A DNA stretch of 64,000 nt, taken from Tubulanus polymorphus (Eukaryota > Animalia > Nemertea). The stretch lies in contig NC_134031.1 of assembly GCF_964204645.1 (NCBI RefSeq), forward strand, positions 11,720,088 through 11,784,087, in the 5' to 3' direction. Of this stretch, positions 3,730-42,168 are shown piece by piece. Each line of letters starts with the position of its first letter. Within the stretch, counting starts at the first letter, position 1. The notes under the pieces are model-generated. The model searched no databases, was not told where the DNA came from, and worked only from the letters and a program-made list of their open reading frames with translations. A program made the translations under genes and the position numbers.

Positions 3730-4406
3730 TTATTCTTTTAATTTTACGAGATAAAATCCATTCATTGAACTTGTCATCGTACCCTTTATATTTCACCAGA
3801 CAATACTTTTTTCCTTTAAGAGTTTTTGTTTTCAATACTTTTTCTATTTTGTATTCTATTTCATCTGGATTTGGTACAAGTGATAATTCTTGTTCGTAGA
3901 AATAACCTAATATTTCTTCATCTTTTAAATCTTCTTATTTATAAACAAATGGTTTAGTAAGTATTATCTTTTTAATCTTAAATATTTCTGCAGTGAAATT
4001 TGGAGTATAACCTTTATAAAATGTTTTTCGACATTTAGATATTCTTACATGTTATCCTTTTTTAAATTCAGGTTCTCCAAAATCATGTGTAACAAACGCA
4101 CCATATAAATTATTCCAAACTATTTCTGAATTATCTTCTTTTCTAGCTTGTATAGGTTTCATATTTATAGAACTATGTTTAGAATTATTATAACCTTTCA
4201 CTAAATCATCTAACACATCGATATATTTACATGTTTCATTAGCAGTAAAATATTTCCACATTCTAGTTTTCAATGTTTTATTAAACCTTTCTATAATAGA
4301 TGCTTTTTTATCTGAGTGTGTTGAAAAATACTCTACATCGTTATCAGATAACAGTTTTTTGATGGGTTTCGTCGTCAGACGAACCCATCTATGGCATCGT
4401 CGTCAT

Positions 4407-4441
<35 letters not shown>

Positions 4442-7119: not shown

Positions 7120-7450
7120 AGTAATTAGGAAATGGCGTTTTCATACCAGAGGTCGAGAGGTCGAGACACCACTCATCACAGCTAGGCTCTAGCGAGAACG
7201 GACGATTGCTCTGTGATACACATATACAGTGAGTGCGCGTAACAACAACTGCGCGTGGATAGATAGATACAGTGAGTCGCCACTGAGAACGGTTATTAAC
7301 GCGTGTGCTATAGTGCAGTGATTGCGTGTCAACTGTGCCCGGATAAATAGATGCTGTGAGGCTTGGGTGAGAACGGTTAATAGCGTGCTTGTTATATACA
7401 AGGGGAAGTAATCCCCACTCATCACTACAAGTAATTTTTTTTCCTTATAA
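7120..7450 (+). repeat. Left terminal (TIR-like) region of copy B
   Basis: AGTAAT start; CCACTCATCAC at 7169-7179 and 7415-7425; three GAGAACGG motifs; ends in ACAAGTAATTTTTT..CCT.ATAAATGGG, shared with 23046-23135 (minus). Confidence 0.65.
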
Positions 7451-7777
7451 ATGGGAGATAGAAAAGCATTCTTAGCAACAATAAATAACAGAATAAAACC
7501 AGCAAAAAAACAATTTGAAATAAAAAAGTTAGTTGATGTTACAAAAGAAATTGAACATAAAATATTGAAATTAGAAAAGATAAAAACTAAATATGGAGAG
7601 AAAGTATCAGCTAATTTAAGCTATTGCGATGTTAGTACATCGCGAGAATTTAAAGTATTTTTACCTGATAAATGGGTTTCATTGAGTACAGAGGAATTAA
7701 AAGATTTAGAAGGATTTAAAATAATCTATTATGGAAAAAATGAAGATGGCCATCATGATTTAGAAATTGTTGATTAA
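7451..7777 (+). CDS. Small conserved Maverick protein, possibly an OB-fold ssDNA-binding protein
   Basis: Intact 108-aa ORF; homologous to 26516-26869 (KKL, KYG.K, FLPD/YLPD, Y.GKNE.GHHD); fold assignment is inference. Confidence 0.6.
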   Translation: MGDRKAFLATINNRIKPAKKQFEIKKLVDVTKEIEHKILKLEKIKTKYGEKVSANLSYCDVSTSREFKVFLPDKWVSLSTEELKDLEGFKIIYYGKNEDGHHDLEIVD

Positions 7778-7939
7778 ATTTAAAAAAAATAAATTAATAA
7801 AAATAATGAATATCTAGAATCCGAAATGACTTATCTGGACAATTTAATTGCTCCGCATAGATAGACAAAAGAAGTGAGATGGTGCCGTACGGCACCCAGA
7901 TGGTGATATTCAATTAATTAAAAAAAATTATTTTTTTGC

Positions 7940-8296
7940 TTTTTTTCTAAAATATTAATCCATTTTTTTTATTATCAATTTTGGAATTTCAGAAGTATTT
8001 TCATTTTTAATAGCAGTTGTTTTAGAATTATTAATATCATGAATTTTATTTGATTTCTTATACCAATTACACCCAATCAAAATGAGTACAATTACAAATC
8101 CAACTGTAAAATATAGTCATTTATCAAATATTCTATTATTAGAAGGAGTAGAAATAACAATATTTTCACCATTTTTATTACTTATTTTTTCTTTTACAGC
8201 TTTTTTATATTCTTGTGATTTAATTCCTAATTGCCGAGACCATTCAATTTGTTTCTGTGATCTCGGTTTTTTCTTCACTTCTTCCACCTTGTTCAT
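7940..8296 (-). pseudogene. Small basic single-TM protein (copy B)
   Basis: MNKVEEVKKKPRSQKQIEWSRQLG...*LYFTVGFVIVLILIG; TAAATG start; internal stop. Confidence 0.55.
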
Positions 8297-8312
8297 TTAT
8301 TATAGAAATATT

Positions 8313-8853
8313 TTAACTTTCAATATTTGAAAATGTTATAACTCCAGTTGATAATAATGTCATAAATCCACCTAATTGAAATGATAAATATCCAATCCAT
8401 TTATTTAATTCGGTCATAACTAAATAATCATTTTTTAAATCAGCATATAATCTATTTTCATCTTGAATTGGCAGCATATAATTACATATTTTACTATAAC
8501 CTTTTACTACATTTTCTGATATCGCATCATTAATTCTAGCTGTTCTCGCGGTTTCATAAATCTTAAATAATCTAATAATTTCATCTGATTTTATTGTATC
8601 CAATTCATTATAAGTTAAATTTTTACCGATAAAATTTTTACATTTTCCAGATGCTATATAATTTCTAATTGATGTTTACAATAAAGAAAATATTCATAAT
8701 TATTATTTGTTGTAACATTATTTAAAGCACCATCATCTGGAATTAATTTGTTTTCTGTTATTCCTAAATCATCTAAATTTATTCCTAATAATCTAAAGTT
8801 TTTTCAATTGGAACATCACCATTTTTAGATTTTATTTTCATTTCACCTACCAT
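8313..8853 (-). pseudogene. Conserved Maverick accessory protein of unknown function
   Basis: TAAATG start at 8853; C-terminal ORF 8313-8603 (LFKIYE...LPI.DEN.L..DL); frameshifts in the 5' half. Confidence 0.55.
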
Positions 8854-8884
8854 TTATATAACAAAAAAATTAGTTGTGATGTTG

Positions 8885-9145
8885 CAACTAGAATTTAACT
8901 AGAATGTAACTAGAATTCAACTAGATTAACAAGCTAGTTGAAATATTGTTTTTTTTATATATTTTTTGTTAAATCTGGTTGATTTTTGTTCCAACTACCA
9001 ATAACTAGAATTCAACTAGAATGTAACTAAAAATATACTAGATTAACAAGCTAGTTAAAATATTGTTGAATTTTATTTGATTTTTGTTTCAAATACCAAT
9101 AACTAGAATTCAACTAGAATGTAACTAAATATGTAATAGATTAAC
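8885..9145. repeat. ~10-bp AACTAGAATN tandem repeats in three blocks downstream of the copy B ATPase
   Basis: AACTAGAATTT/AACTAGAATGT/AACTAGAATTC/AACTAGATTAACAAG blocks at about 8886, 9003 and 9101. Confidence 0.85.
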
Positions 9146-9159
9146 AAACCTGTTGAATT

Positions 9160-9767
9160 TAAATAAATTCATTTTTAAATGGGTGTTGTAATCTAAATAG
9201 TAATTTTGTTCTTTTAATATTTTTCAATTTATCCATATATTCATTATGTAAATCATGTGGAATAATATCGTTTTCCTCAAGTGCATTTTTCATCGATTTT
9301 CTATCTTTATTGTAGAATAAAACTAGAAATCTAATGTTTTCTCTAAAGTCTTTAACAATGGAATTATATTTTTGATTTTAAACCCATGTTGTTATCCCGA
9401 AATGTCTCCCAGAGAAAGCCAGATAACATAACTCACTTTCTCTCACTTTTGAATCATGTAAATTTGCGCAATCATCTATAATGAATAATGTATTTGATCC
9501 TTTATAAATATCTATTGCTATTTTAATACAATTATCTAAATTTTCTTTTACTGTTTTAGGATCTAATATAATAAATTTATTATTTCTAGTAATATTTCTA
9601 TCATAAGTTTGAATAAATTCATATGTTGCACAAAATAATACTATATTATCAAAATAGTTTTTATAAACAGTTTCTAATAAATTTAATATAAAATAAGTTT
9701 TTCCACAATTTGTTACGCCAGAAATTAACATATTATGAGGCTCAAATATAAATGATTCCTTATTCAT
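9160..9767 (-). pseudogene. FtsK/A32-like packaging ATPase (copy B)
   Basis: Walker A ISGVTNCGKT, Walker B LFIIDDC, FSGRHFGITTWV; premature stop at 9378, homology to copy A continues to about 9190. Confidence 0.9.
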
Positions 9768-10892
9768 TTATATATTTTTAATTTTACTTGATAATATCCA
9801 GTCATTGAATTTATCTGGCTACCAACCCATTTTACTAAAGAATATTTTTTTCTTTTAATAGTTTTTGTTTTTAATACTTTTTCAATTTTATATTCTTGTT
9901 CTAGATTTTCAGTAGTTAAACTCAATTCTTCTTCGTAAAAGTAGCCATCAACTTCTTCACCATCTAAATCTTCTAATTTATAGACATATGGTTTTGTTGT
10001 TATAACCTTTTTTATTTTATATATTTCTCTAGTAAAATTTCGATCGTATCCTTTATCAAATATCTTTTTATACTTAGAAATTCTAACATTTTGACCAACT
10101 TTAAATTTAGGTTCGCCAAAATCATCTACAAGAAATGCTCCATATAAATTATTCCAAACAATTTCAGAATTTTCAGGTTTTCTAGCATCAATAGGTTTCA
10201 TTCCAATAGAAGAATGATAAGAATTATTATATCCTTCTATCAATTTTGGCAAAACATCAATCCATTTAAAAGTTATTTGCTGTAAGATATTTCCACATTC
10301 TTGTTCTTAATGTTCTATTAAATCGTTCAACAACTGCCGCTTGTTTATCCGATTTTGTTGAAAAATATTTAATATTATGATTGTCTAAGAGTTCATGAAC
10401 AAGTGAATTATCAAACTCTTTTCCATCATCAAATTGTATTTTTTCTGGTTTTAGTTTATCATCCGAAAGAAATTTTCTTAAAACATTTGATGTTTGTACA
10501 GCATCTTTTCTATAAATTGGGAAACTCCATACATAACGACTAAAAATATCAATTATATTCAATATCCATCAATAATCATCATTATATTTCTTAACATTTT
10601 TCATATCAATTAAATCTCTTTGCCACTGTTGATCTACATAACTTACCATAGTTTTACGAGTTTTATATTTTCTAACAATTTTTTTATGTGTTGTATATGT
10701 TGGTTGTTCTAACGTAAATTCATTTATATCTATATATTTAACTAAATTTTGTGGGATTATCTTATCTAATTTATCTTCTTTTACTTGACGCCATATATTT
10801 TTGGTAGAAGAATAAGCAACCGAACTCTCAGGGTTGTAATATAAATTTCTTAAATATTGTTCTTTAGTATTAGGAGTTTTTTTACCACCCAT
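9764..10892 (-). pseudogene. rve integrase with chromodomain (copy B), three fragments
   Basis: ORFs 10569-10892, 10266-10562 and 9764-10252; D-D-E in QWQRDL, IQFDDGKEF, VVERFNRT; chromo-like YKIEKVLK...LVKWVG. Confidence 0.92.
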
Positions 10893-10922
10893 TTATATAT
10901 CCTTAATTTTAACTTTATATTT

Positions 10923-11950
10923 CTAATATTGAATACTATCTAATTGTGAATTTACAATATTTAATTGTGCGTCAGATATAATATAAATGTGCATTTTAAA
11001 ATTTAAGCTTCCTTTTTTCTTTTTCATGAATAATTATATTCCATCTTTAGTGTTCTGTAGTTATTTTCTAGAACCATGTAATGAATTATTTATCCTCTGT
11101 TGTTCTAAAATCTAACCATAATGCATATTTATTGCCGGTATAATAATCAATTTGATTAATATTACAATTTTCAGATGATTTTACTTTTTCATTCATAAAA
11201 TGTTTTCTAATTTCTGGCCATTGATCAATCATTCTCATTCCTTGACAAAATATTTTATTTGCTATTCCTTCGATAGTTATTTCTACTTTTGTTATTTCAG
11301 GATTATAATAATTATCAACCTTTATTGCGCCATTAGAATATGTTGCAATGGTAAAAAATATTAATATACCTTTAATAGATCTTCTTGGGAAGTTAATATT
11401 CTCATTAATTATTTCATCATTTGCATTAATAGTTACAGTTTTAAATTTATCAATATAATCATATAATAATGAAAATACTTGATTGTATCGAGTTTGAATT
11501 GTGCTAGCAATATTTTCATTAGTTACTGTATTATATTCTAAACATATATTCGATAATTTATATCCCATATCTTTAACAACGCTAGATAATACAATTTCAT
11601 TTACAGGAGCAAATGTTATCTCAAATATAATATCTTCTTGAATTACATATTTATATAAAGGTGCATTATTATTTATCAATTCAAAGTCTAATGGAATTTT
11701 ACATTTGCTTCCATAAATCTTTTTAATCAAATTATCTGCGGCACGAGTTACTATTGCGTCATTAGCTCCTGATCTTAATTTATTATGGTTTTCCGATTGA
11801 ATGCCTTGAAATATCATATTATTTCTATTTTCTTTAGTTAACCATAAATCTTTATAATGCATAAATAAATTATAATCATCTAATGAGAAAATTGTTTCTG
11901 GACCAATCTTTATAGTTAATTTTTTAATCAAATATCTCCCAACATTGTTG
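10923..11950 (-). pseudogene. Major capsid protein (copy B), N-terminus deleted
   Basis: ORF 11086-11931 near-identical to 983-1801; joined at about 11950 to the upstream coiled-coil gene; premature stop at 11086. Confidence 0.85.
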
Positions 11951-13073
11951 TAAATAACATAGTTACAGCTGTTAGAATTGAAAGAATTGTTATTCCTTCA
12001 AACTTAAATAATAACTTTATTCTATCTTTTAATGATATTTCAGAATTTGGTTTAATCAACAAATCTTTAAAAATAACTTTTAATCTATTAATATTATAAT
12101 CATATGATTTTAATAATAATTTAATTTCTTCTTTCCGTACTTCTAAATTATCTTTTAAATTATTAATTTCTTTTTCTAATCGTAATTCTTTTTGCCTATA
12201 TTCTATTTCATCAATTACTTGATGATCTAAATCAGACTTTAATTGTTCTATTTCTTTATTTTTATCAGTTAATTCTTTTTCTAAAAATCTGATTCTAAAA
12301 TCTCTTATACTTTTATTATGTGCAATTTTATCAGCTTCATTTCTTATACTAATAATTTCTCTAATTGCTTCATCAGAAAATATATTTAAATCTTCTAATT
12401 GTTGATCTGTTGCATCAATTAATCCATTCGGTAAAAGTTTTTCAATTGGAACTTTATTTGATTTAAGTTTACTAGTTTTGGAAGTTATATTCTGTTCAGA
12501 AGTTGTTTTTGTTTCTGATTTCTTTTTGATTATTTCAAATAATTCATTAATTCTTTATTTAAATACGTCTATATCATTACCAGTTAATTCTTGTTTTATA
12601 ACATCAGTTATTACATTACTATTACTAATTCTTTTAATTCTATCTGGATCTAAATCACTCAAAGTTGATTTTGTTAATATCTTATTTTTATTATTTTTAT
12701 AAGTGATATCAATATAATAATCACCTTTCAAATGATAATAACATTTACCATTATCAAAAAATTTTAATTGATCTGCTAAAAGTCCAACGTCTTCATCATT
12801 TATGTTAAGTTTAGAATTTTCAATTATACGTTCTAATTTAGGTATTTTGTTTAAATTATCTAAATCTTGTTTTACTAAATCTGGGTCTAAATTTTCAGGA
12901 TTTAATTGTGATTCTGCATTTTTAATATAATCAGGCATATTTAAATTATTATTATATTCTGGCTCATTACCGTCATTAAAACTTGTTTCACTAAAATCAG
13001 GTTGTTGTTCATCAGTTATGCCAGGTTCATCAAAATTATCCATTCCAATATCTTCTCCACCTTCTACATCCAT
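11951..13073 (-). pseudogene. Acidic N-terminal/coiled-coil protein (copy B), C-terminus deleted
   Basis: ORF 12555-13073 (..FSETSFNDG..) continues past a stop into sequence matching 1-405. Confidence 0.65.
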
Positions 13074-13089
13074 TTATATAATAAAAAAA

Positions 13090-14376
13090 TTAAAATTTAA
13101 AATATGATATTCCTCCTATTACAATTCCTATACAAGTTAAAGCTAATTTAGTATTTTCATGGGATTTATTATCATTATCAGTTTTGATTATATCATGTTG
13201 AATATTATCAGTTTTAATATTTTCTGATGTATTGTAATCTTTTATTTTAGAATCATACTTTATTTAATATTATTAGTTTTAGTTTCTGTTGATTGAATAT
13301 GTTTTTTATTTTTTTCGCCTTCCATTAATTTTGGAGCAGTCATAATCTTTTTATTTATATCATTTAATCCAAATGAATTATTTATTGTTGCAGTTTTAAT
13401 TAGATTATTATAACCAATTATGTTTCCCATCTTTAATACTAAATCATTAGAAATAATTAATATAATAATTTAATCTAATATGTGATTTATCTAAATAATT
13501 TTGATATCTTACAATGTTTTCTGGAATCGATCTATTTTTATCATTATGAATAGAATCTTCAAATAACACTTTGAATTGTTTCTGCGCATCAAATGAAGTA
13601 CTATCATTTCCAACTATTGGTGATCTTGTTTCAACTTGTGCACCTAAAATACAAATTAAATAAGTTCTAATTGATTGATTTATTCTTTGTATACCAGGTT
13701 TTGTAAAACCTTCACCATTATCTATAATCAAATTATTCCAACCATCATCAATATCGATTTTATAATTATGATAAGCTCCAATTCTATGCATATAATCAAT
13801 TCTTTTTATTTCATACTCTTCACCAATACCTTGCAATTTACCATGCGCTCTAAAATCGGAATTAATATTTATATTAAATTCATTACATATTTTATAAAAC
13901 TTAGATAGATTAATATAATTATCCAATTCTTTAAAATATTTCGATCCAGGTAAAGGACATTCAAATTCATTTAATATAATTCTAATTTGAAAGTATGCAT
14001 GAAATCTAAATATTGTATGAATGAATTTTAAATCTGAATAAGACAAATTGTTATATAAATTATTCAAGTGATCATTCCAACTTATACCACACCCTGTTGT
14101 TGCACAATAAACAGCAAAATTTAATTGATTCTGCCAATATTTCATATTAGATTTTATTTTATATATATTATATTCATCTCGAGTAAAAGTAACTTCATAT
14201 GTATTAAATATATTTTCCATTCTAGAAATGAAAAACTTTGTTTCAGTAACATAAATTTCTAAATTAATTAATGAAGGTAAAACTACATTTTTATATGTTA
14301 TAATACTATTAAAATCTATAGGTGGAATTAAATATCTATATGATTTATTATATTGGAAAGCTTTTGGAAACCCCAT
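13090..14376 (-). pseudogene. Conserved Maverick protein (WQNQLNFAVYCATTGCGIS family) with C-terminal TM segment
   Basis: 309-aa ORF 13447-14376 then frameshifted tail (GNIIGYNNLI...KLALTCIGIVIGGISYF); paralogue at 23136-24138. Confidence 0.7.
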
Positions 14377-14392
14377 TTATATAATTAAAAAA

Positions 14393-14842
14393 TTAATAAT
14401 TTATTAATTCTTTTAATAATTTATCTTGTTCTTCAACTGTTATATGGCCATTTAAACTTATTATATAATCTAGTGTATTCTTTAATTTATTAATTTCTTT
14501 TGTATTAGTTTTAATTTTTTCTTTATTACTTTTTATATTTAATTTTGAACTTATACCAGTTAAAACACTTGAACTTAATCCTAATGCATCATCAACTGAT
14601 TGAAAATCTCTATGTGAAATCTTCTGATCATATAATTCCTTGTTAATATAATCCATATAGTTTTGCCTCTTTTCTCTATATTCTTCTGCTGCTTTATTAT
14701 ATTTCTCTAATGCTAAGTTATGTCTTTTTTGTTCTTCTAATGAACTATTTTTATCTATATGTCTAAATAAATAACTACCACCAGTAAATGCTAAAGCGTT
14801 AACAATTGCAGATCCTATAATAGTTATAATTGCAGAAGCCAT
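14393..14842 (-). pseudogene. Deletion-fused pair of small Maverick genes
   Basis: MASAIITIIGSAIVNALAF...KRHNLALEK...SVDDA fused to LGLSSSVLTGISSK; the two halves are separate genes in copy C (24608-25141 and 24155-24589). Confidence 0.7.
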
Positions 14843-14857
14843 TTATTTAGTAAAATA

Positions 14858-15087
14858 ATTACGTATTTATATGGGAGCAATATATTTTTGTTTTTCTAAA
14901 TAATCAATTGTTAAATTAGATAAAGTTTCTGCTAATGTTAATTTTAAAATATCATTTATATCAAATCTATCAACATTAACACTTCCCATTTTGAATACTT
15001 TTTTAATACCATTGAATAGCCAACAGTTCCAACTGATAGTAATGCGCCATTATATAATCCAGTTATTATCCACTTATTATCACTCAT
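14858..15087 (-). pseudogene. Small hydrophobic Maverick protein (copy B)
   Basis: MSDNKWIITGLYNGALLSVGTVG...DYLEKQKYI; paralogue at 25157-25385. Confidence 0.55.
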
Positions 15088-15125
15088 TTATTAATCAAAA
15101 AATTACTATCTTCAAAATATTTAGT

Positions 15126-15443
15126 TTACTTATTTATGATTAATTCAACATTTATTTCATTACTAGTTTCATTTGTATATATTTCAATTATTATTTTTTT
15201 TATATCATCGATGATAAAATCTTCATCTAATTCATAAAATCTTAAAGATTCTCTAATTAAATTAGTAATCTTTTCTACATTTAAAGTTTCTTTATCTATT
15301 GTTGTTTCATACTCAAATGTTGTTTCATTAAAAAATGTAATATTTTTGATATGAGTTATTACATCATTAATGTTAAATTTCATTTCTTTCTCACGTTTAA
15401 AATCAAATCCAAAACATATACTCGGTCCAACAGTTATATTCAT
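15126..15443 (-). CDS. Hypothetical Maverick protein
   Basis: 105-aa ORF MNITVGPSICFGFDFK; paralogue at 25389-25727. Confidence 0.6.
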   Translation of the reverse strand: MNITVGPSICFGFDFKREKEMKFNINDVITHIKNITFFNETTFEYETTIDKETLNVEKITNLIRESLRFYELDEDFIIDDIKKIIIEIYTNETSNEINVELIINK

Positions 15444-15459
15444 TTATATAATGAAGAAA

Positions 15460-16165
15460 TTACTCTTTACATCTTATAACTAATTCATAAATTACAGGAA
15501 AGTTATTCAAATCAATTAAGTATCCATTGTGATTTCTTACTTCTAATTTGAAATTATTGAAATGTGGTATACAAGGTTTAAAATTATATTCTGTTAAATT
15601 ATAATTTATTTGAGTTCCAAATTGATTAACATTATTTAATGGTAAAATATTTAGTATACTAGAATTACATGTTGTATCTTTAGTTGCTTCAAATGTTTTT
15701 GTAGGATCAATTAAATTACAATAAATATAGAAATGTGTGTAAGGTATTAAGTTTGATCTACCTGCTGCGTTTACTGTAACAATATTTTTGTTCATGAGCT
15801 AACCTAATCTTTATTTTATTAGAACTATCACTTTTTGAAAATCTAATACTAAATCCGGAATCACTTCCTAATTTAGCTCGAGCTTTTCTATTAATTTCTT
15901 GTGCTAATGTATCTAAATTATATAATCCTGGTTTTAAATATATAAAAAACCATTTATTCCTTTTTTTGTAAAAGATTGAAAAAATTAAATGTTCTAGACT
16001 TTTATCCGATATATTGTAAAATGAGTTACATAAACTTATATTTACTAATTTTAAATCAACACAATGCATAAATTCTCTATCTAATTGTATTAGTAAATTA
16101 TGTGATTTATAATTTGTTAGTTTTCTAGAATCAACAAATATTCTGTATTCTTTTAATTCTACCAT
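15460..16165 (-). pseudogene. Minor capsid protein (penton, single jelly-roll), frameshifted (copy B)
   Basis: IFVDSR, ISLCNSFYNIS, LKPGLYN, THFYIYCNLID, ILNILP..FG, NGYLIDLNNFPV.YEL recognised as Polinton mCP motifs. Confidence 0.75.
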
Positions 16166-16232
16166 TATTTATAACATAAAAAATTACCGCTCATCACTAA
16201 AAATTAATTTTGATAAAATTTTTCCTAAATAA

Positions 16233-17303
16233 ATGGATGAGAAGATAGGATGTGAAATTTGTGGTGAACTTTTAAGAAAAAGTAATATGGCTCGACATAT
16301 GAAAAAACATGATGAAAATTATAAACCCCCTAAAATAAACTGCCCAAAATGTAATAAATTATTCTCAAGAAATTATGTTAAAAAACATTCAGAGAAGTGT
16401 AAAATTAATGGCGCAACGGCTAATGTTGATAGTAACGAAAGTAATAGTAATTCTGTTGAAGTTGAACCTGAAATTATTTGGAAAAGACCTTTCTTATTCT
16501 ATGACAAGGATAATATAAAAGATCATATCTGTGAGCCTTGTCGAATGAAATTTAGTCCTGAAAATATAGAAGATTGGGAGAATCATCAATTTCGTAAAAT
16601 ACATATAGATAAAATTTCTAATAAATTTGAAGCAGAATTCAATGAAAGAAAAAATAGTTTATTAGAAAAAATAAAATATGAGAAAACGTTACCAGATAAT
16701 AAAGAAACAGTTGAAAAGTTAGAAAAACAATATAATGAATTAACAAGAAAAACATATTATTGTAAATATTGTAAATTGATTATTACAACAAGTAATTCAA
16801 ATCTACATAATAGAACAATAAAACATAAAGAAAACGTAAGAAAATACCAGGAGCTTAATGAAGATCTATTACCAATAAATTATAAACAAAAATGCCCACA
16901 ATGTAATTATGCGACCTTAAGACAAGAAGGCACTGTGTTATTTTGTAATGAATGTGGATGGCAAAAGAATTTATGGGGTGAAGAAAAAACTAGAGATTTT
17001 CTCATAGAACCAAAATTAAATTATCTAGATGAAATTTTTAAAATATTTTCTATAGAAGATCATACACCAGAATATATGCAATGGCTTGAAAAAATGAAAA
17101 TAATAGAAAATAAAAATGGTGAAATAACTAAAAAAGGTATTATAAAAACAATTATTCCATCAACATTTAACACAAAACAAAAGAAAATGTATTTATATTT
17201 ATTATTTAACGATTATTATGAAAAACCTAAATTAACAGAAGAAGATATGGAAAATATTAAAAAAAACATTCAAACAAATATTAATGTATCATTTGGAAAA
17301 TAG
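16233..17303 (+). CDS. Multi-zinc-finger protein (C2H2/U1-like plus C4 ribbon)
   Basis: Intact 356-aa ORF: CEIC..RHMKKH, CPKC..KH..KC, CEPC..H...H, CKYC..HNRTIKH, CPQC..CNEC. Confidence 0.7.
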   Translation: MDEKIGCEICGELLRKSNMARHMKKHDENYKPPKINCPKCNKLFSRNYVKKHSEKCKINGATANVDSNESNSNSVEVEPEIIWKRPFLFYDKDNIKDHICEPCRMKFSPENIEDWENHQFRKIHIDKISNKFEAEFNERKNSLLEKIKYEKTLPDNKETVEKLEKQYNELTRKTYYCKYCKLIITTSNSNLHNRTIKHKENVRKYQELNEDLLPINYKQKCPQCNYATLRQEGTVLFCNECGWQKNLWGEEKTRDFLIEPKLNYLDEIFKIFSIEDHTPEYMQWLEKMKIIENKNGEITKKGIIKTIIPSTFNTKQKKMYLYLLFNDYYEKPKLTEEDMENIKKNIQTNINVSFGK

Positions 17304-17562
17304 AATAACAGATTCAATTAATTATGATTTCTTTTTAAATAAGATTGTAAATTATTTAAACATCGATATTATAATTCCATTTGACGAATTAACAAACAAA
17401 AAGAAACAAAGAGAGCGATATGAAATGTGGTACAAGATAGAACTTTATTTAAATGAGAAAAATGAAATGGAAGAACCTAAACAAATTATACAAGAACAAT
17501 TAAATGAAAATGAAGAAGCCAATAGTGATTTCGAGTATGATGATATTGATTTTCTGTTTTAA
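17284..17562 (+). CDS. Hypothetical protein with acidic C-terminus
   Basis: 92-aa ORF overlapping the end of the zinc-finger gene, convergent with pPolB. Confidence 0.4.
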   Translation: MYHLENRITDSINYDFFLNKIVNYLNIDIIIPFDELTNKKKQRERYEMWYKIELYLNEKNEMEEPKQIIQEQLNENEEANSDFEYDDIDFLF

Positions 17563-18013
17563 TGGCCATAAGGTAATGTTTTTATACCATCATCTAAAAT
17601 ATGCCTTTTATCATCAAATGGATTCAAACTAGTTTTTTCAACTTCATTAATGTACATCTCGTGATTTTCTGATCTTAAACAATTCATTTTATGTTTCATT
17701 ACAATTGAGTTATATAAACACTTTATATAATCTTGAAATTCTATATGTTTATCAACCACATGTTTTGTTATTCCTTTTAACTTTTTATTTCATGATCTTT
17801 TATTCTGTACCTATACATTTTACTTCTTATCCCAACAAATTCAATCATTTCATCACCCCCTAATTCATCTTTAAATTTACCAGAAATCTTTTTATTATCA
17901 TTGTTAAATAGTTCATGATCTTTGGGATAATTGCTAAAATCAAAATGATGTTTTAATGTTTTTAAGTCTTTTGTTATGTCATTTGTCTTGATTTTTAGTA
18001 TGTACGCATCCGT

Positions 18014-19510
18014 ATTGAAGCAAATTAATGGAAATCCACAGTTGAATGTGCCATCTTCAGTTGATAAATCATAAACATTATCTGTTGGGTTATATATTTC
18101 AAATAAATCTTTAACTTCTTCAGTTAAATCTTTTTCTGTGTGGCTTAAATTAAAGCAATTTGGTTTAGATTTAATCAATCCAATATTCATATTGAAGCCT
18201 AATGAATTACATAATATATTTAACCCTGTGTTGTCTACTGTTATGTACTAACTCATACTATGGTCAAGTTTCAGGTTCGCGCTTCATGCACAACGTATTC
18301 CTGGCTTCTTTTATTCCAGATTTCCGGTTTGTAACTGTTTCTGTGTATGGGTATTGTCCCTATTGTAGTTACCTCTCTATATAATCGCATAACATTTAGT
18401 TTTCTGGGCATTTGCCATTTGAGTTTAGACCATGTGAATTTAGCCGGATAAAGAGCTGTAAGTTGTATGCAATGTATTACTTCAAATTTTGCCTGAAATT
18501 CTGAAATTCTTATTTATTGAATATGTATTTAGCTGTTATTCTATTTTTTGTAGTTAACTCGTTATCGTTTTTCGCTACCGCTCTGCCGGTCATTAAACCG
18601 TTTGACGTTAAAGCGTTGTCCGTTGTTAGTCCTTTTGTCGCTCAGTCTCCGACACCCTGATATAGCAACTTTTCCTTTCTGTGCAAAGGTTATCTTTTTA
18701 TCTTTTGTAAATTTTTTAGCACCATCTGCTGCGTAGAATCCAATGAAGAACCATTTTCTTAAATTATTTTTTGCATTTAATACATAATCTGGAACTATCT
18801 TTTCTTTAGTTGAAGTATTACTTTTCACTATTGCATGAATATAGAATTCATCATTATATTTTATAGCAAAATCTTTAGGATTATTTACAAGTATTCTATA
18901 AACTGCTGATGATTTCATTACATCCATGATTCTAAATGTTGTATGTGAATAAACTTCTTCACAGAATTTCTTAATTCTTTCTAATAATTTCAAGTCTTGA
19001 TTGCATAAATACTAACAATATTTATTACCCCAAACATAATTATACACACCTGCTGAACCATCACCCATGAAAAATCCTTTGATAAAATATTCTTTTTCTT
19101 CTAATGTTTCGGGTTCTATATTATAAATATTATCAATAATTTCATCGAATGACATATGATTCATTCTTTGGAAAAATCTTTTATGTAATAATTCATCTCC
19201 AATTTTTATATCAGTTGGTTTTATTTCATCGCCATTTCGTTTAATTAAACTATGGTCTTCTGTAACATCTACAAACCCTAATTTAGTTCTAAACTCTATA
19301 GATTTTCTTATTTGTTTTATGTCTAATAATATTCTTTAATTTTTTCCATCCATTTCTTGTCCAAACATCTATTAATTCATTTATTTGTATTAATTCTTTT
19401 TCACCATATGAAATATAACATTCATTTTGTTTTGGAATTATTTCTGAAATTCTTCTTATCAATATTTTATCATTACATTTTAATAATATTGGGGTGTCAG
19501 CTGTTACAGA
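18014..19510 (-). mobile_element. Intein with LAGLIDADG homing endonuclease in pPolB motif C (decayed)
   Basis: After YFD: block A SVTADTPILL, block B VDVTEDHSL, LAGLIDADG helices IKGFFMGDGS and FIGFYAADGA, blocks F/G VYDLSTEDGTFNCGFPLICFN|T; one +1 frameshift (~19290), one stop (~19013), one LTR insertion. Confidence 0.93.
18229..18654 (-). mobile_element. Solo LTR (426 bp) inside the intein endonuclease
   Basis: TG...CA ends; 5-bp TSD CCCTG at 18224-18228 and 18655-18659; removal restores KVAISG|LNILCNSLG; TATA-like then AATAAA on the minus strand. Confidence 0.9.
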
Positions 19511-22500
19511 ATCAAAATATAATATTTCAATATGCTTTTCCCCAAAAAGTGGTCGTAAAACATTATAATAAAAATCATACATTAATAATTTTGATACTTC
19601 TAAAACAGTTGAACCAATGAATATAGGTTTATTAAATTTCATTGACGTTCTTTTTAATTTAACTGCTTTTAAATAATCTTCAAATCTTTTATTTCCTAAA
19701 TGTCTAGGACTTGATTGTGAATGTCTTAATCTTTCAGAATTATTTACTAATTCAATATCATTTCTATTTCTAATATTTTCGCATGTTTTACCATAAAAAC
19801 TATTATTCATTAATTTGAAGAAATCTTTTTCAAAATCTGTTTTTGATATGGTTCTCTGTTGAGTATTGAAATCTATATATTTTTCTAACCACTTCGATTG
19901 ATTAAATTCAATATATCTATGTACTTTCTTTAATTTCATTCCTTGTTTTAGATAAAATGTTAACATTCTATAATGAACAATATAATTGTATTTATTATTT
20001 TGAGTAAGTATTAACTTCTCTGTAAAAACATGATCTTTCGGTTTTATTTTCTTTTGGTATTCACTTAAATAACTATCATCTACAGTTAAATGTTCTGGGC
20101 AATAAGCTAAGTTTCTTGTTTTAAACTTTATATTTTCAGGATATTCTAAATCAACTACAAAGAAATAACCAATTGGTGCTTCATCTTTTAAACTCGCAAT
20201 TGCGCTTTCCCAATCAGTTTTATCATCATTTTCAACTTCTGTTAATATAAAATCTTTATATGGTTGAGGTTGCATCATTGCCCAACCATATACATTATTG
20301 GCGTCAATATATAATAATTTATATTCATCATTTGCTTTAAAATATCTATCTCCCATAACACCACTAATTCCACCTCTAATTGATTTTTCAAATAATAAAA
20401 CCATGTCTGGTTCTTTTAATAAATCTAATTCTACATTTGTATATTTTAAACCACATTGCCAGGTTAAACCAGGACTAGAGTAGCAATAACAAGGATCAAC
20501 ATTAAAATGATTCAAATTAACTTCTCTAAATTTTTCAAATATGTCAGCCAATATCATAACATCTGATTTTAAATATAAATCAACTAATTCACCATGATTT
20601 TTCATCTTAAAATGGTTCCAAATATTTAATGTTCTATTAAACACTTCGTCTTTCACATACTCCTCTTTTAATTGATCATAAAATTGATCTTTTAATAATT
20701 CTGTTACATTAAAATCATTGTGTGTTTTATAAAATGAATAAGGAATTGCGCCTTTATATCTCAATAATTTAAAATCTTGTTCATTTGGATAATAATATCG
20801 AGTCATAACAAAATCATTATCAACTAAACTTTTTGATAAATTATCTAATGAACTTGCTAGAAATCTATAAGAATCTAAAAATCTAATGCAACCAAATTGA
20901 AATGAAATATAATTTTCAGATGTTTTAGCTAATAGTTTAAAATCATATTTTCTTACATTTACACCATTCATAGCATTATATTCTTCTATTTCTTGATTAA
21001 TTGCGCCCAATTTTCCCGATAATTGTTTTATTAATAGATGGGTATCATAGCCTGATAAATTATGAAATAATATTGGTACGAAATTAACTTTCTTAGCTTG
21101 TAAATTGCAATCTTCATGAGCAGCTCCACGATATTTTGAATTTAAATGATCATGATCTCTAACTTTTTTATCAAATGAATAAAAACGTTTTTCACAATAA
21201 CAACAATGAGTTGCATAATTAAAATCAATTTCATCTTCTTTTGTCATAACTATTCTTTTATTTTTGTTTAATAATTTTGCAAAATCACTTTCTAATTCAA
21301 TCATTTTGTCACAAAAATCATTAACTACATTTTCACCTCTAAAAGAAATATATCGACTTTCATATAATTCAGGATAATTTGATTTTATATAAATTCCATA
21401 AGCAGCAGCTCTTTGATGAACTTTTTTAATTGTATTTATAATTGGCGGGTCTTGTATTGTGTCTTCATTTAATTCATTTCCTTTATCCATTGATTTTAAT
21501 AATTGCTTTTTGTTATATATTTCTTTTCTATCTTGATCAGTTAATTCTTTATTCAACGATTCAAAATCCCCATACAAATGGAACAATATTCTTAAATTTA
21601 TGATTAGTAAATTTCAATTCATAATCTTTTTCTGTTGGCATTATTAATTTACAAAAATCTTTATTATCACATAATTCTTTATGTTTTAATAATGTTTTCT
21701 TAGTCATAAATTTAGATAAACATTTTCTACATAGATAAATTTTATGATGATGATCACTTTCTGTTCTAAAGAATAAATCAATTTGTTTTAACCACATATA
21801 ATGTTCATTTTCATCTTTTTTGTAATATAACAAATCTATAGCATTTTCATCATCGTAATATTCTGTTAAATATAAAGTTTCCAATGTATAATCTTTAATA
21901 TTTTCACCTTTTGTCTTTGGTAATTGCATTAATTCAAATACATTTATTTTTAAATTATTAACTTTTTCTATTTTAGAAATCATTTTTATAGTTACTGGAT
22001 ATTGATCAATTTTATATAATGTTTCATATTTCCGATAATCTGTTATTCTACAAACATTTTCCTGTGTTGGATGTAAGCAACTAATAATTGACCCTAGAAA
22101 ACATTTATTATCTTCATTTTGAATACTTATTACTGCTTTTGTTGTAAATGGTAATTTAATATAAGATGATGCTTTAATATCCTTTTCTGTTGTAAAGTTT
22201 GAATCATTTTTAAACATTTTATTACTTTTTGATGTTTTATTTCTTTTTGTATTATAAACATTTAAATCTAAATATATCATTTCATTCAATGTTAAGCCAG
22301 AACCCTCAAAATATCTTTCTTCAATATGACGTTTAAATTCATTAAATATTTTTTCTAACTTCTCTTTTATTTGTGTTTTTGAAATTATTTCTTCAGAGTG
22401 TGTTTGAATATTATAATCCATTTTTTTTCTTCTGACTTTATAAAACTTACTTTCCCAGAGATACTAATTTTTGGATATTCAACATCTGTTATCAAATCTA

Positions 22501-23135
22501 GTATTTTTTCTATTATTTCATTAAATGTACTATAATCTTCTATTGTTGTACCTTTAAAAAATCTAAATATAATAGCTGCAGGACCAATTTTACTATGTAA
22601 TGTTTCTAAAATTTCAATTGTATCTTTTATTTCTAGTGAATCAATATAATTTCTAACATTTTCCATGTAAGGTTTATTTGAAATGGATTTAGTTTTTGAA
22701 GTTGGTTTTTTTACTTTTTGAGGTTTATCATCAAAATAATCTTTTCCTAAAACATTATTACTCAAATTTTGATGGTGTTTTTGTGATTCGAGATGTCTAT
22801 TATAATTCCTTTTTACTATAAATTCATTACAAACTTCACATTTTATTTCATCCACATTCATATTTTCTAATCTTCCTTTTCTTTCATTGGAATTTTCTGG
22901 AGTTTCAAAATCTATTACATTTTTTATATGATTTGTAGTTTTTTCATGTCGTGTTTTATTAGATGTATCGACGTATTTTTTACAATATGTGCAATAATAT
23001 TGATTTTTATTAACATTATTGTTTTCTGGCTGGTGTTCATTCTTCCCCATTTATTAGGAAAAAAAATTACTTGTGGTGATGAGTGGTGTCTCGTCCTCGG
23101 GTCCTCTGATCTGAAGGCCCACTTTTCCAATTACT

Positions 23136-24154: not shown

Positions 24155-25727
24155 TTAATAATTAATTAATTCTTTTAATAATCTATCTAGTTCTTCAATT
24201 TTTATATTACCATTTAAACTTATAATATAATCTAGTGTATTTTTTAATTCATTAATTTCTTTTATATTAGATTTTATTTTTTCTTTATTACTTTTTATAT
24301 TCAATTTTGAACTTATTCCGGTTAAAACACTTGAACTTAATCCTAACACACCAATTGATATAGCTAAAGGTGTTTATGGTGAGAATATTGCTAAAAATGT
24401 TATTACAGAACTAATTGTAACTGAACCACTAATAATAAAACAATATATAATTTTCCTTTTTAAATATTTTTTCTTTTAAACTTTTAAATCATTTTCAAAT
24501 TTTAATATTTGTTTTTCCAAATATAATTTTAATTTAGTTTTATTTATATCATGAGGAATAATATTAACACCATCAACTTTATCATCCATTTATTTAGCAA
24601 AAAAATTACTAATTTGTAAATTTATAAGCAACAAATATAACAATAACTGTTCCACCTAAAATCCAAATTATTTCATATTTCTTCTGTTCTTTACTTGGGG
24701 TATAATAATCTGATAATTTAGGTTTGTATAGATGTAATTTTCACGATTTTTTACTGCATTATATAAACTCATAGCTTCATCGACTGATTGAAAATCTGTA
24801 TGTGTAATTTTCTGATTATATAATTCTTTATTAATGTAATCCATGGCCCAGGTCCACAGTTCTGAGTTACGATTTGACTCTGGGTTAAAACATTGAAAAT
24901 GAACTAACTTAAACTCAGAGTTAACTCTAACTCACGACTGTGGAACTGGGTCCATATAGTTTTACCTCTTTTCTCTATATTCTTCTGCAGCTTTATTATA
25001 TTTCTCTAATGCTAAATTATGTCTTCTTTGTTCTCCTTATGAATTATTTTTATCAATATGCTTAAACAAATATCCGCCACCAGTAAATGCTAAAGCGTTA
25101 ACAATTGCCGACCCTATAATAGTTATAATTGCAGAAGCCATTTATTTAGTAAAAAAATTATGCATTTATAAAGGAGGATTATATTTTTGTTTTTCTAAAT
25201 AATCAATCGTTAAATTAGATAAAGTAACTGCTAATGTTAATTTTAAAATATCATTGATATCAAATCTATCAACATTAACACTTCCCACTTTAAATAATTG
25301 TTTTAATACCATTTAATAACCAACAGTTCCAGCTGACAGTTGCTCCATTATATAAACCAGTTATTATCCACTTATTATCACTCATTTATTAATCAAAAAA
25401 ATCACCTTCTTCAAAATATTTAGTTATCTTATTTATGATTATTTCAACATTTATTTCATTACTACTTTTATGATTGTCATATATTTTAGATAATATATTT
25501 TTAATATCATCGATAATTCCATCTTCATTTAATTCATAATATTCTAAAGGTGTTTTGATTAAATCAATTACTTTTTCTATATTATAATTTCCTTTATTAA
25601 TCATGGATGCATTGTTAAATGATTTACCATTAATATCAGTAATTACATCATTTAGTTTAATTCTCATTTCTTTACCATGTTTAAAATCAAACCCAAAACA
25701 TATACTCGGTCCAACAGTTATATTCAT
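24155..25727 (-). pseudogene. Four small accessory genes of copy C (starts at 24589, 25141, 25385, 25727)
   Basis: Each homologous to genes in 14393-15443; three have TAAATG starts. Confidence 0.7.
24845..24952. mobile_element. 108-bp MITE (PIF/Harbinger-like) in a copy C gene
   Basis: TIR GGCCCAGGTCCACAGT / ACTGTGGAACTGGGTC; CAT duplicated on both sides; empty site ATCCATATAG in copy B (~14651). Confidence 0.85.
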
Positions 25728-26899: not shown

Positions 26900-29800
26900 T
26901 TAACATGCTAGAATTCTTTTAATAATCTCATTCTCTTTTGTTTCTTCTCTTTTAAACTTTAAGTATTCATCTAAATTACAACCATAAGCAACTGTGTGTA
27001 TACCATCATCTAAAATATATCTTTTATCGTCAAATGGGTTTAGACTTATCTTCTCTATCTCTTCAAAAAACATTTCATGATCTTCTGATCTTAAATATTT
27101 CATCTTATGTTTTCTAACTTCTTCATTGAATATACAATTGATGTAATCTTTGAAATGAATATTCTTTTCAACAGCGCTTTTGGTAATTCCTTTTAACTTT
27201 TTAGATTCATGAGTTTTGGTTTCATATGAATCTATTTTAGATCGAATTCCAATGAACTCTCATTCTCAGTCATTTCTTCACCACCTAATTCATCTTAGAA
27301 TTTACCGGGTCGCTTTTTATTTTCAGTATTATATAATTCATGAGCTTTTGGATAATTACTGAAATCAAAATGGTGTTTTAATGTTTTTAAATCATCTGTT
27401 ATGTTATTAGTTTTTATCTTAAATATGTAACTGTCAGTATCAAAATATAAGATTTCTATATGCTTTTCTCCAAAATGAGGTTGTAATACATTATAATAGA
27501 ATTCATACATTAATAATTTTGATATTTCTAAAACTGATGCTCCAACATAAATTGGTTTATTGAATTTCATAGAAGTTCTTCTCATTTTAACTGCAGCTAA
27601 ATTTTTATCAAATATTCTGTTACCTATGAACTTAGGATATGTTTGTAAATGCCTTATCCTTTTACCATTACTAACTAACTCAATATCATTTCTATTTCTA
27701 ATATTTTCACAAGTCTTACCATAGAATGCATTATTCATTAACTTGAAGAAATCTTTCTCAAAATCAGTTTTAGCTTTAGTTCTCTGTTGAAATCTATATA
27801 TTTTTCTAACCATTTAGATTGACTGAATGAAATATATCTATGTACTTTTTTTAGAACCATTCCTTGATTCAAATAAAACTTCAACATTCTATAATGTACT
27901 ACATAATTATATTTATCTTCCTGAGTTACCATTAACTTTTCAGTATGAATATGATTTTCGGGTTTAATTCTTTTTTGGTAATTTGATAATTCTTCATGTG
28001 TTACAGTTTTATGTTCGGGGCAGTATGCTGCATTCCTTGATTTAAATTTAATGTTTTCAGGATATTCCAAATCTACAACAAAGAAGTAACCAGTATCTGA
28101 ATCATCTGCAATATCTAGAATTCTTTTCTTCCAATCAAATTTATCATTATTTTCATGTTGTAAAACTTCAGTTATTTCAAATACTCCATAAGGTTGTGGT
28201 TCCATCATTGCCAAACCATATAGATTATTTGCGTCTATATATAATAATTTATATCCAGGGTGGGTTATCATTTACATTGAAATATATATCGCCTAATACA
28301 CCCGAAACTCCTCCTCTTATAGATTTTTCCAATAATAATAATTGATTTATATTTGTTAACAAATCCATTTTTATATCTGTAAATTTCAAACCACAGTCCC
28401 AAGTTAAACCTGGACTAGAATAACAATGACATGGATCAATATTGAAATATTTTAGATTTACATCTCTAAACCATTCAAATATATCAGTTAATAATAATAC
28501 ATCTGATTTTAGATATAAATCTACTAATTGTCCATGATTTTTCATTCCAAAATGATTCCAAATATTCAATGTTCTATGGTAGACTTCATCTTTAACATAT
28601 TCATTTTTTAATTCATCATAGAATTGTTCTTTTAATAATTCAGTTATATTGAAATCATTATGTGATTTATAAAATGAATATGGAATTGCTCCTTTATATC
28701 TCATTAATTGAAAATCATCATTATTTGGATAGTGTTGCTTTAATATGTTTAATTCATCATCAACTAATGATTTTGATAAATTATCTAATGAACTACTTAA
28801 AAATCTATATGAATCTATAAATCTTAGACACCCAAATTGGAAAGATATATAGTTCTCAGATGTTTTAGCTTACATTTTAAATTTATATGTTGGTATTTAA
28901 TCTTTGATCTATTTGGATTTAATCTTTCTATTTCATTATTGATTTCTTCTATTTTATGGCATAGCTGTTTGATAAATAAATGAGCATCATACCCTGATAA
29001 ATTATGAAATATAACTGGAACAAAATTGATTTTCTTAGCTTGTAAGTTACAAATCTCATTCGCCGCACCTCTAAACTTTCCATTCAAATGATCATGGTCT
29101 CTAACTTTTTTATCTTTTAGATTAAATGTCTTTTCACAATAAAAACATTTATCAGCAAACTCAAATTCTTCTTTATCTTCGTCTGTCATAATTATTTCTA
29201 TATTTGTATCTAATAGTTTACTAAATTTTATTTCATATTCAATTAATAAGTCACAAAAATGATTTATAACATTTTCATTTCTATAATTATAATATTCACT
29301 TGAAATTAGTTCTGGATAATCAGATTTTATATATAATCCAAAAGCTGTAGCTGATTGATGAATCTTTTTAATAGTATTTGTTTCTGGTGGTTCTTCTGAA
29401 AAATCATTTTCATAGTTTAGTTTCTTTCTTTTATAATATATTTCTTTTCTATCGTGATCAGTTAATTCTTTATTGAGTGACTCGAAGTCACCATATATTA
29501 CAAATGGTACTTTGTTTTTGTAATCATATTTTTAAAATTCTAATATTTTATCCTTTTCATTTGGTAAAAATAATTAACAATAATCATGATTTTCACATAA
29601 TTGTTTATGATTTGATAATGCAGTTTCAGTTCTAAATTTATGTAAACATTTTCTACATAGATATATTTTATTATCAAAATCATTTTCTGATTTAAAAAAT
29701 AAATCGATTTGTTTAATCCACATATAATGATTTTCATAATATAGTATATCTATAACATCATTTGAATCATAATTTTGATAGGTATAAAGTTTCTAATGTA

Positions 29801-30947
29801 TAATGTTTTATATTGTTACCTTTCGTATTTGGTAATTTGATTAAATCGAATACATTTATTTTTAGATTATTATCCCTTTCAATTTTTGGAATATTTTTAA
29901 TTCTAACTGGATAATTATCTATCTTATAATTATTTTCAAATTGTTTATAATTTGTTAATCTAAAACTATGTGTTATATCTTCTGTTGGATGTAAGCAACT
30001 TATAACTGTCCATAGAAAACATTTATCATCAGAATTGTGTACATTTATTACAGCATTAGTTGTAAATGGTTATTTGATATAACTTGATCCATTTATAATA
30101 TCATCATTATAATATGATAAATTATTTTCATCAATTGGTTTTGATTTAGTTAACTTATTATATTTTGTGTTATAAACATGTAAAGTCATAAATATTATTT
30201 CATCAAATATTAACCCAGATCCTTCAAAATATTTCTCTTCTATTTTAGTTTTTACTTCATTATAACATTTATCTAATTTTTCATCTATATGTTGTTTCAT
30301 CTATATATTGTTGAAATAATATGTTGTGAATGGGAATTTATATTATATATTGGTTTATCTTCAGATTTTATAAACTTAACTTTAACTGATATGCTAATTT
30401 TAGGGTATTCAATATTTTCACAATATTTTTCATATTTTCTAAATGTTTTTTTATTTTCTTCTAATGTTTTTCCTTTATGAAATTTAAACTCAATAGCAGC
30501 TGGACCAACATCACTTTTAAATGCTTCAGTTATCTCTACTTCTTTTTTATTATCTAATGAATTGATATAATTTCTAATATCTTCCATGTATGGTCTTTTA
30601 CTGTTTAATTCATTTTTTATTCTTTTAATTGTCTTCTGTTTCTTATCATTATCTTTATCAAAATAATCTTCACCTATAATATCATCATTATTAATATTTC
30701 TAATATGACTTATAGATTTTAAATGTTCTTTATAATATCTTTTATCACTGAATGATTGATTACATGTATCACATTTATATATTTCTTTTTCATTCTTCAA
30801 TTCATCTTATTTAGTTTCTAATTTATCATCTTTATATTCTAATTTCAATTTATTTTCTAAATGTGTTCTAGTTTTATTATGTCTTGCTTTTTGAGATTTA
30901 TCTATATTAATTTTACATGTCGGACAGTAGTACTTATTTGCTTCCAT
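26900..30947 (-). pseudogene. polB: Protein-primed family B DNA polymerase (copy C), intein-free allele
   Basis: Many frameshifted fragments; YIDANNLYG, KLMNNAFYGK, uninterrupted ILYFDTDSY (27427-27453). Confidence 0.95.
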
Positions 30948-39029: not shown

Positions 39030-39072
39030 CTAGAAATAAAATGTTTTTAAGTCAAATACAAATAGATACCCG

Positions 39073-39170
39073 GGACCAAGTTCCACAGTTCTGAGTTGAA
39101 TTTAGCTTAGGGACTTAAACATGGAAATGGGGTTGATTCTAACTCCAACTCACACCTGTGGAACTGGAAT
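39073..39170. mobile_element. MITE related to 24845-24952, in a Sola intron
   Basis: AGTTCCACAGTTCTGAGTT...AACTCAC..CTGTGGAACT. Confidence 0.7.
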
Positions 39171-39193
39171 CTGGACTACACTTTTCAACTTAC

Positions 39194-42097: not shown

Positions 42098-42168
42098 CTG
42101 AAAAAGTTAAGACACATTGAGTCAATGAGATGAAAAGAGATATGGTTCCATTGCAGCGGATATTATAT

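Follow-up and report, generated by a model that had tools for sequence, protein, structure and literature searches.

The window analysed here, a stretch of 64,000 nucleotides, contains a cluster of Polinton (Maverick) remains at positions 1-31200, with 21-26% GC and an interruption at 4-8 kb. At least four Polinton remains lie together in this region. One of them, element B, spans about 16 kb between two terminal-inverted-repeat remnants (7120-23135), a length within the 15-25 kb of Polintons. The left remnant (7120-7455) is formed by segments 7120-7179 and 7415-7455, which align with the reverse-complemented right remnant (23046-23135) at 78% identity (60 bp) and 95% identity (41 bp), respectively. 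Pfam searches show that element B carries, on the minus strand, genes for a DNA polymerase of family B that is protein-primed (pPolB), a retroviral-type integrase and an A32-type packaging ATPase. The upstream part of the polymerase gene (19511-23005), here called copy B, encodes zinc fingers, the exonuclease and the polymerase, and ends at YFD. Its frame breaks upstream of 21560, and the long minus-strand frame 21613-19289 matches protein-primed family B polymerases (PF03175, E 1.1e-17). The integrase gene (10266-10892; PF00665, E 9.6e-8) and the ATPase gene (9164-9767; PF04665, E 9.7e-9; extent taken from the match to 3176-4330) are both broken. A major-capsid-like gene is located at 10886-11997 on the minus strand, with a weak match to PF16903 (E 0.031), and a copy with 93% identity at 902-2025 also matches weakly (E 0.0038). 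No adenain-type protease was found among 40 frames run against Pfam, and no clear 6-bp target duplication at the decayed ends of element B. By its pPolB, integrase, packaging ATPase and terminal inverted repeats, element B can be assigned to the Polintons/Mavericks, the type of carrier proposed in the first-pass annotation. On the plus strand, a zinc-finger frame (16233-17303) precedes a small frame (17236-17562) with a weak match to poxvirus VLTF3 (E 0.01), and both face the polymerase.

A second polymerase gene, copy C, is found at 26981-30941 on the minus strand. It is broken and sister to P0002, a relative that lacks any insertion, and its minus-strand translation reads uninterrupted HIEILYFDTDSYIFK at 27439/27438 (YFD/TDS; the slash marks the insertion site). 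Copies C and B share 72.5% DNA identity over 3.5 kb of polymerase; next to the site, they match at 14 of the 15 upstream bases and at 10 of the 15 downstream ones. The empty site of copy C had been recorded in the first-pass annotation and was recovered here. Its description of B and C as filled and empty alleles had to be abandoned, because 72.5% DNA identity places them in different families; copy C is an empty homologue. Element B may lie nested within C; the right end of C is located near 31170, and the integrase and ATPase homologues at 3176-6048 could belong to C.

The window also shows very high-copy short elements at 24848-24953 and 32623-33470, with thousands of loose read ends; internally deleted variants of the latter exist. 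An intact minus-strand frame of 990 aa (39190-42162) has low read depth, is transposase-like by eye and shows an OTU-like C-terminal match (E 1.4e-4); its atlas clusters are unnamed and all below 0.9. Tandem repeats of 146 bp (42165-42814) and 150 bp (47571-47987) were also detected, as well as two tandem 1023-bp copies with 100% identity at 44358-46401, which represent either a very recent duplication or an assembly artefact.

The intein in the copy B polymerase

Minus-strand translation shows that the YFD/TD motif of the copy B polymerase is split by a LAGLIDADG intein of about 355 codons (1066 bp outside a later insertion and one of its repeats). The N-terminal junction is HIEILYFD/SVTADTP, with the intein starting at 19510, and the C-terminal junction is GFPLICFN/TDAYILK at 18014/18013. 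In tblastn with the empty relative P0002, copy B follows this protein up to YFD (68% identity over 714 aa) and matches it again after GFPLICFN at 18014, in a C-extein (17565-18013, minus strand) that begins Thr-Asp-Ala (78% and 74%).

The intein is read in four minus-strand pieces. Piece 1 (19292-19510) contains Ser1, block A and the N-terminal splicing region, shows 66% identity to the intein of P0008 and has a frame break at its end. Piece 2 (19012-19290) contains block B (TEDH) and the first LAGLIDADG helix (block C), and an in-frame stop codon (19009-19011) within the endonuclease domain separates it from piece 3 (18660-19008), which carries endonuclease sequence and the second LAGLIDADG helix (block E). 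Piece 4 (18014-18223) completes the endonuclease, includes blocks F and G, and closes with Phe-Asn. Between pieces 3 and 4 there is a 426-bp insertion (18229-18654) with TG...CA ends, flanked by 5-bp direct repeats (18224-18228 and 18655-18659) and with 37% GC versus 25%, which is probably a solo-LTR-like sequence. Blocks A (Ser1), B (VTEDH), C (GFFMGDG), E (GFYAADG), F (VYDL) and G (Phe-Asn) are followed by Thr+1; the TxxH of block B and the Asp of block F are both present, and blocks C and E are separated by 112 aa, compared with 101-110 aa in relatives. The first-pass annotation had reported this intein with all its splicing blocks and two LAGLIDADG helices, as well as its Ser start, Phe-Asn end, missing penultimate His and Thr+1, and translation and profile scan bear it out on each of these points.

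As a chance control, a profile built exclusively from 123 inteins of RNA-primed PolB was run on the whole window. Only four of the 1246 stop-to-stop segments matched, all of them at the intein locus and in profile order: pieces 1 to 4 covered profile positions 1-74, 74-156, 160-273 and 267-336 of 343, with E-values of 6e-18, 1e-25, 3e-29 and 2e-12, respectively. A chance motif match is thereby ruled out. Piece 1 also matched TIGR01445 (intein_Nterm; E 2.3e-4) under the curated cut-off, and the window intein matched PF14528 (LAGLIDADG_3; E 1.7e-4) with 22.2 bits against a cut-off of 22.5. Single window pieces taken alone gave no match to the Pfam intein families. The HINT/LAGLIDADG assignment stands on the PolB-intein profile (E down to 3e-29) and on relatives that pass Pfam thresholds, while the window pieces remain under the curated cut-offs. 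A PDB sequence search with the window core found no match below E 0.17; with the intein alignment, the best match was PI-TkoII.

The penultimate residue is Phe in the window and His, Ser or Lys in its relatives. Since 59 of 126 related inteins lack the penultimate His (four with Phe; mimivirus has Lys), this residue is not obligatory. The 25% GC of the intein is uninformative about its origin. A Hedgehog Hog-Hint domain, which is Cys-initiated, C-terminal and without endonuclease, was rejected for this Ser-initiated, internal, LAGLIDADG-containing feature, and an assembly artefact was ruled out by reads of another study that span the intein junctions. The sequence evidence supports a predicted canonical LAGLIDADG class 1 intein that occupies the pol-c-type site in a Polinton pPolB. 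The window copy itself is dead, because it combines the frame break near 19290, the stop codon at 19009-19011, the 426-bp insertion and, near 17786, another break of the reading frame within the C-extein.

Filled and empty relatives

The best matches of the window core were the inteins of P0008 (61%), P0009 (50%) and P0010 (44%), ahead of that of mimivirus (40%), with 29 matches of 1282 candidates. These three proteins contain a PF03175-type polymerase and the intein domains in one chain. P0008 as query added P0199, P0200, P0201 and the cut P0232 among the matches listed (120 of 963), and a search of 50% cluster representatives added P0067 (76% to the window core) and P0103. This last search returned none of P0008, P0009 and P0010, so it undercounts Polinton inteins. 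In all, six distinct intact intein-bearing Polinton polymerases (P0008, P0009, P0010, P0199, P0200 and P0201) and three fragments (P0067, P0103 and P0232) were identified, with sources given as JGI, ENA, NCBI or Logan. The inteins of the six intact relatives occupy the same site, have 337-354 aa and the Ser...Asn/Thr arrangement, and are 42-50% alike between lineages. Both catalytic Asp and all splicing residues are retained in all six and in the window. The cut-off of PF14528 is passed by the six, that of Intein_splicing (PF14890) by P0009 and P0199, and that of TIGR01445 by P0199 and P0200. The structure predicted for P0009 has a mean pLDDT of 80, with values of about 90 in the intein. In a structure search it matched TliVMA, PI-TkoII, PI-PfuI, PI-SceI and I-DmoI (E 4e-14 to 4e-7), and in a viral library it matched intein-containing polymerases of giant viruses as well as adintovirus/MELD polymerases.

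Residues preceding the insertion vary across Polinton inteins (YFD, YGD, YMD, YLD, ASD and SSD), and copy C, P0001, P0002, P0006, P0007, P0037 and six members of the P0199 cluster are empty at exactly this site. Window pieces show 61-76% identity to other Polinton inteins; with any RNA-primed intein, identity does not exceed 50% for the 73-aa N piece and 43% for the core. Among viral and metagenome contigs, P0008 as query gave no match; the intein alignment found at least 160 loci, with an RNA-primed C-extein in 142 and a pPolB in none among the matches listed, and the window extein found three distant loci, none with an intein. Phage records gave one weak match. The same intein group is present at several sites of type II topoisomerases (P0027-P0032, P0036, P0124, P0175, P0181 and P0186) and twice in a single PolB, P0014; the group thus moves between unrelated sites.

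The P0199 cluster has 136 members, of which 15 listed members were compared: seven are filled and intact, six are empty and two are too short to reach the site. The seven filled inteins are 96-99.7% alike. Over the N-extein, the empty members share 95-99% identity with P0199, falling to 5-6 of the last ten residues before the site and 6 of the first ten after it, with 6-9 of 10 over the next forty. Three active-site sequences are found among the empty members P0298, P0300-P0302, P0304 and P0305: YTD/CDS, YFD/TDA and YGD/TDA. Co-conversion from a diverged donor, or escape by survivors, would leave such site-centred divergence, and either would point to an active endonuclease. Escape or recombination could account for it instead of co-conversion, and the members are not necessarily from one genome. 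The contigs of this cluster reach 1.0 Mb, which fits a eukaryote assembly. In the window, the residues after the intein are TDA in B, as in the filled P0067, and TDS in the nearest empty relatives of B, possibly a smaller echo of the same pattern.

The stretch is present in five public runs, four of them from one named species. Read depth was determined in about 12% of run X6, which comes from the same species and another study; run X5, with a small share and 11 short contigs, was kept out of the evidence. Depth in X6 was 220-250 on the intein and 240-300 on the adjoining extein, compared with 7-17 (median about 10) on 37108-41755, which corresponds to about 20 intein-bearing copies per baseline unit, provided that this baseline is single-copy. 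In the last third of the intein depth falls to 110-150, with divergence among copies suggested as a possible cause. The frame break of the window copy is absent from 187 of 221 reads, and the 426-bp insertion is skipped by 67 reads of X6 and one contig of run X1. Six reads of X6 cross an empty junction, and these may derive from C-like families. Family B seems to have increased in copy number while carrying the intein, which would therefore have been spliced. The copy C family reaches a depth of 330-500; since it is abundant, copy C is empty and its downstream flank matches at only 10 of 15 bases, the endonuclease may not cut the copy C site. As regards the survey of intein-positive and -negative elements suggested in the first-pass annotation, reads of the same species show the roughly 20-fold intein copies, and with six intact and three fragmentary relatives the window intein is not a one-off.

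Origin and maintenance of the intein

Separate intein and extein trees, named in the first-pass annotation as a check, were built. The intein trees had 53, 21 and 31 rows, taken from 126 full inteins plus additions. Polinton inteins form one clade (SH-aLRT 99 in 53 rows; 100/99 in 21 rows) on a long stem. In the extein tree, which was built without the empty members P0300 and P0302 and with copy C as one 161-aa piece, filled and empty polymerases are interleaved, and copy B is sister to the empty P0001/P0037 (85%; 100/98). Starred branches force at least three changes, none of 200 bootstrap extein trees has a single change, and 45 of 500 label shuffles are as low in change count; such counts cannot separate gain from loss. 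Intein and extein identities are 66 and 66% for P0199/P0009, 77 and 81% for P0200/P0201, and 61-66 and 60% for window/P0008. These three pairs, with the same sisters and about equal distances in both parts, fit plain vertical descent and argue against frequent long jumps. The extein of P0010 is placed on a long branch and shares 21-33% identity with 11 of the 12 remaining filled rows (its 48% to P0008 is probably a short-overlap artefact), and its intein, with 42-49% identity, belongs to the clade, without a well-supported position in the 21-row tree. A far polymerase with an ordinary clade intein argues for at least one jump.

The nearest non-Polinton relatives are, with support from sequence comparison, RNA-primed PolB inteins, many on giant-virus-labelled contigs. 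Among cluster representatives, 2058 intein relatives were found at E <=0.001, and nearly all of the best 150 are in RNA-primed PolB. With three distant pol-c-type inteins as the root, the 22 ingroup rows from outside the Polintons cluster together without the Polinton inteins (93/87), and mimivirus as sister to Polinton inteins was rejected (p 0.015). Sisterhood with an RNA-primed subclade that shares the C-terminal motif FNxGxPL was not rejected (AU p 0.169); this subclade is found on giant-virus-labelled contigs (e.g., L081, L082 and L084) and in two phage-type (phrog_262) polymerases, P0050 and P0086. The inteins of these two are nested with the giant-virus subclade (99/99), which suggests intein exchange between phages and eukaryotic viruses. 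Polinton inteins thus appear related to giant-virus pol-c inteins; the 53-row tree shows no clear nesting among these, and they fall outside at 93/87 in the rooted tree. A direction from large DNA viruses to Polintons is favored by the abundance of RNA-primed relatives, not by the tree.

We give about two chances in three to the reading that the window holds a decayed copy of a LAGLIDADG intein family of the Polinton pPolB YxD/TD site, likely kept by homing between co-nuclear Polinton copies. The polymerase would be made as a precursor containing the intein, and Ser1, Thr and His of block B, Asp of block F, the terminal Asn and Thr+1 would perform class 1 splicing, by Ser1 acyl shift, transfer to Thr+1 and Asn cyclisation, as described in the available part of PMC7765530. 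Splicing would rebuild the YxD-TD motif with its metal-binding aspartates, so replication of the element would depend on splicing. Once released, the two-helix LAGLIDADG endonuclease would cut the unoccupied site in related Polintons of the same nucleus, whether integrated or replicating, and homologous repair templated by a filled copy would transfer the intein plus a short flanking stretch. Polintons may have gained the intein once, long ago, from the pol-c pool common to large DNA viruses, phages and archaea, after which it would mostly have descended with the polymerases, being repeatedly lost and regained by invasion and moving at least once into a distant polymerase group. In its strongest form, that animal genomes hold still-mobile inteins of an old Polinton-specific lineage, sister to and not derived from giant-virus pol-c inteins, with a splicing-dependent polymerase and live homing among dozens of germline copies that drives active-site escape variants and crosses distant Polinton groups, this account is tentative, and we lean slightly against it.

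One ancient gain followed solely by vertical descent and repeated precise loss, with an endonuclease that no longer homes, would explain the three pairs in which distances and sisters agree, and the near fixation of the intein in family B (six reads across the empty junction in X6). Without homing, the endonuclease of an intein is expected to decay, leaving mini-inteins; both LAGLIDADG Asp are kept, however, in all six intact inteins despite their divergence between lineages. In addition, divergence is centred on the site between near-identical filled and empty P0199-family copies, and P0010 joins a far extein to an ordinary clade intein, all of which makes this explanation unlikely. The intein and its element could also be real and the host not an animal, but a protist or alga, or a contaminant contig. 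No host exon was recognised (none of 100 short frames had a Pfam match), there was no Rfam match, and all atlas rows were below 0.9. Against this, raw reads that another study obtained from one named species extend over the Polinton cluster as well as its flank, and the atlas clusters nearest the flanking transposase-like frame and the polymerase of P0199 are eukaryotic, Arthropoda or Mollusca being the most frequent groups (a weak indication). The repeat-rich flank, with 35% GC and 146-150-bp tandem repeats, also resembles what we take to be marine invertebrate DNA. An animal host is likely, and a non-animal one improbable.

The first-pass annotation had favored direct homing from a large DNA virus into the polymerase in a co-infected cell, followed by germline entry. 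The site and the Ser/Asn/Thr chemistry are indeed those of the mimivirus intein (in the accessible part of PMC549080), nearly all of the best 150 relatives among cluster representatives are RNA-primed, and sisterhood with the FNxGxPL subclade (p 0.169) remains compatible with the data. Nevertheless, the window intein has closer relatives in other Polintons (61-76%, versus at most 43% for the core), Polinton inteins form a single clade on a long stem, the mimivirus sister is rejected and the rooted tree sets them outside the RNA-primed group. A direct giant-virus jump as the proximate route is thus largely refuted, and we regard it as very improbable. Polinton inteins likely persist by copying between Polinton copies, as opposed to recent arrival from giant viruses.

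Comparison with known systems

To our knowledge, published descriptions restrict inteins essentially to prokaryotes, unicellular eukaryotes, fungi, algae and large DNA viruses. A Polinton-borne intein lineage would be an entry route for inteins into animal chromosomes, and its inteins would directly mark the exchange of genes among Polintons and with large DNA viruses. Polinton polymerase genes with a 1-kb 'insertion' may be functional and should not be counted as broken. The natural filled and empty copies with 95-99% identity provide material for the study of splicing, target recognition and the cycle of invasion and loss.

In full-text literature searches, whose reach left out subscription journals, InBase, Repbase and the supplements of bioRxiv, no published intein turned up in the polymerase of a Polinton, Maverick or adintovirus, nor in any protein-primed polymerase, which agrees with the novelty assumed in the first-pass annotation. 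The same holds for the available parts of PMC12220804, PMC3671162 and PMC5718144, and the word intein does not appear in that of PMC8502044. A report of an intein in vertebrate Mavericks is not borne out by PMC8097293, whose accessible text and supplement gave no match. What appears new here is that Polintons have their own lineage of pol-c-type, putatively homing inteins, one dead copy of which is present in the window.

Among viral exteins, DNA polymerases are the most frequent ones in the consulted sections of a survey of eukaryotic inteins (Green et al. 2018, PMC5784728) and a review (PMC7765530), and the window intein shares this type of extein. Its closest described counterparts are the mimivirus PolB intein (APMV Pol) and the archaeal pol-c intein allele, which, according to the portion available of Ogata et al. 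2005 (PMC549080), lie at the YGD/TDS position with Ser1, a terminal Asn and Thr+1; the occurrence of such Ser-initiated inteins at this site in mimivirus and archaea, cited in the first-pass annotation, is confirmed there. The mimivirus and window inteins both have two LAGLIDADG helices and about 350 aa, with 40% identity over the core. The host of the window intein is, in contrast, the protein-primed PolB of an integrating Polinton, its site varies and it belongs to a separate clade. The nuclear-scaffold inteins of Klebsormidium, Tetrabaena and a labyrinthulid (Gallot-Lavallee et al. 2023, PMC10710043) are likewise found within an endogenous viral polymerase in a eukaryotic nuclear genome. 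Their hosts are algae and a protist, and the accessible part of that article does not mention Polinton, Maverick, animal or metazoa, whereas the carrier in the window is a multi-copy, self-replicating element that supplies its own empty targets.

Endonucleases inserted in a Polinton polymerase, as in the window, are also known from the HNH and VSR nuclease insertions of Polinton pPolB2 (Jeong et al. 2023, PMC10748475; Krupovic et al. 2024, PMC11161782). In the parts of these articles available, 'intein' and 'LAGLIDADG' are absent from Jeong et al., and one speculative sentence of Krupovic et al. presents HNH/GIY-YIG insertions as an outcome of intein invasions. A splicing domain is unreported there for the HNH/VSR insertions, whereas the window intein combines a full HINT domain with a LAGLIDADG endonuclease and is located within the catalytic motif of the polymerase.
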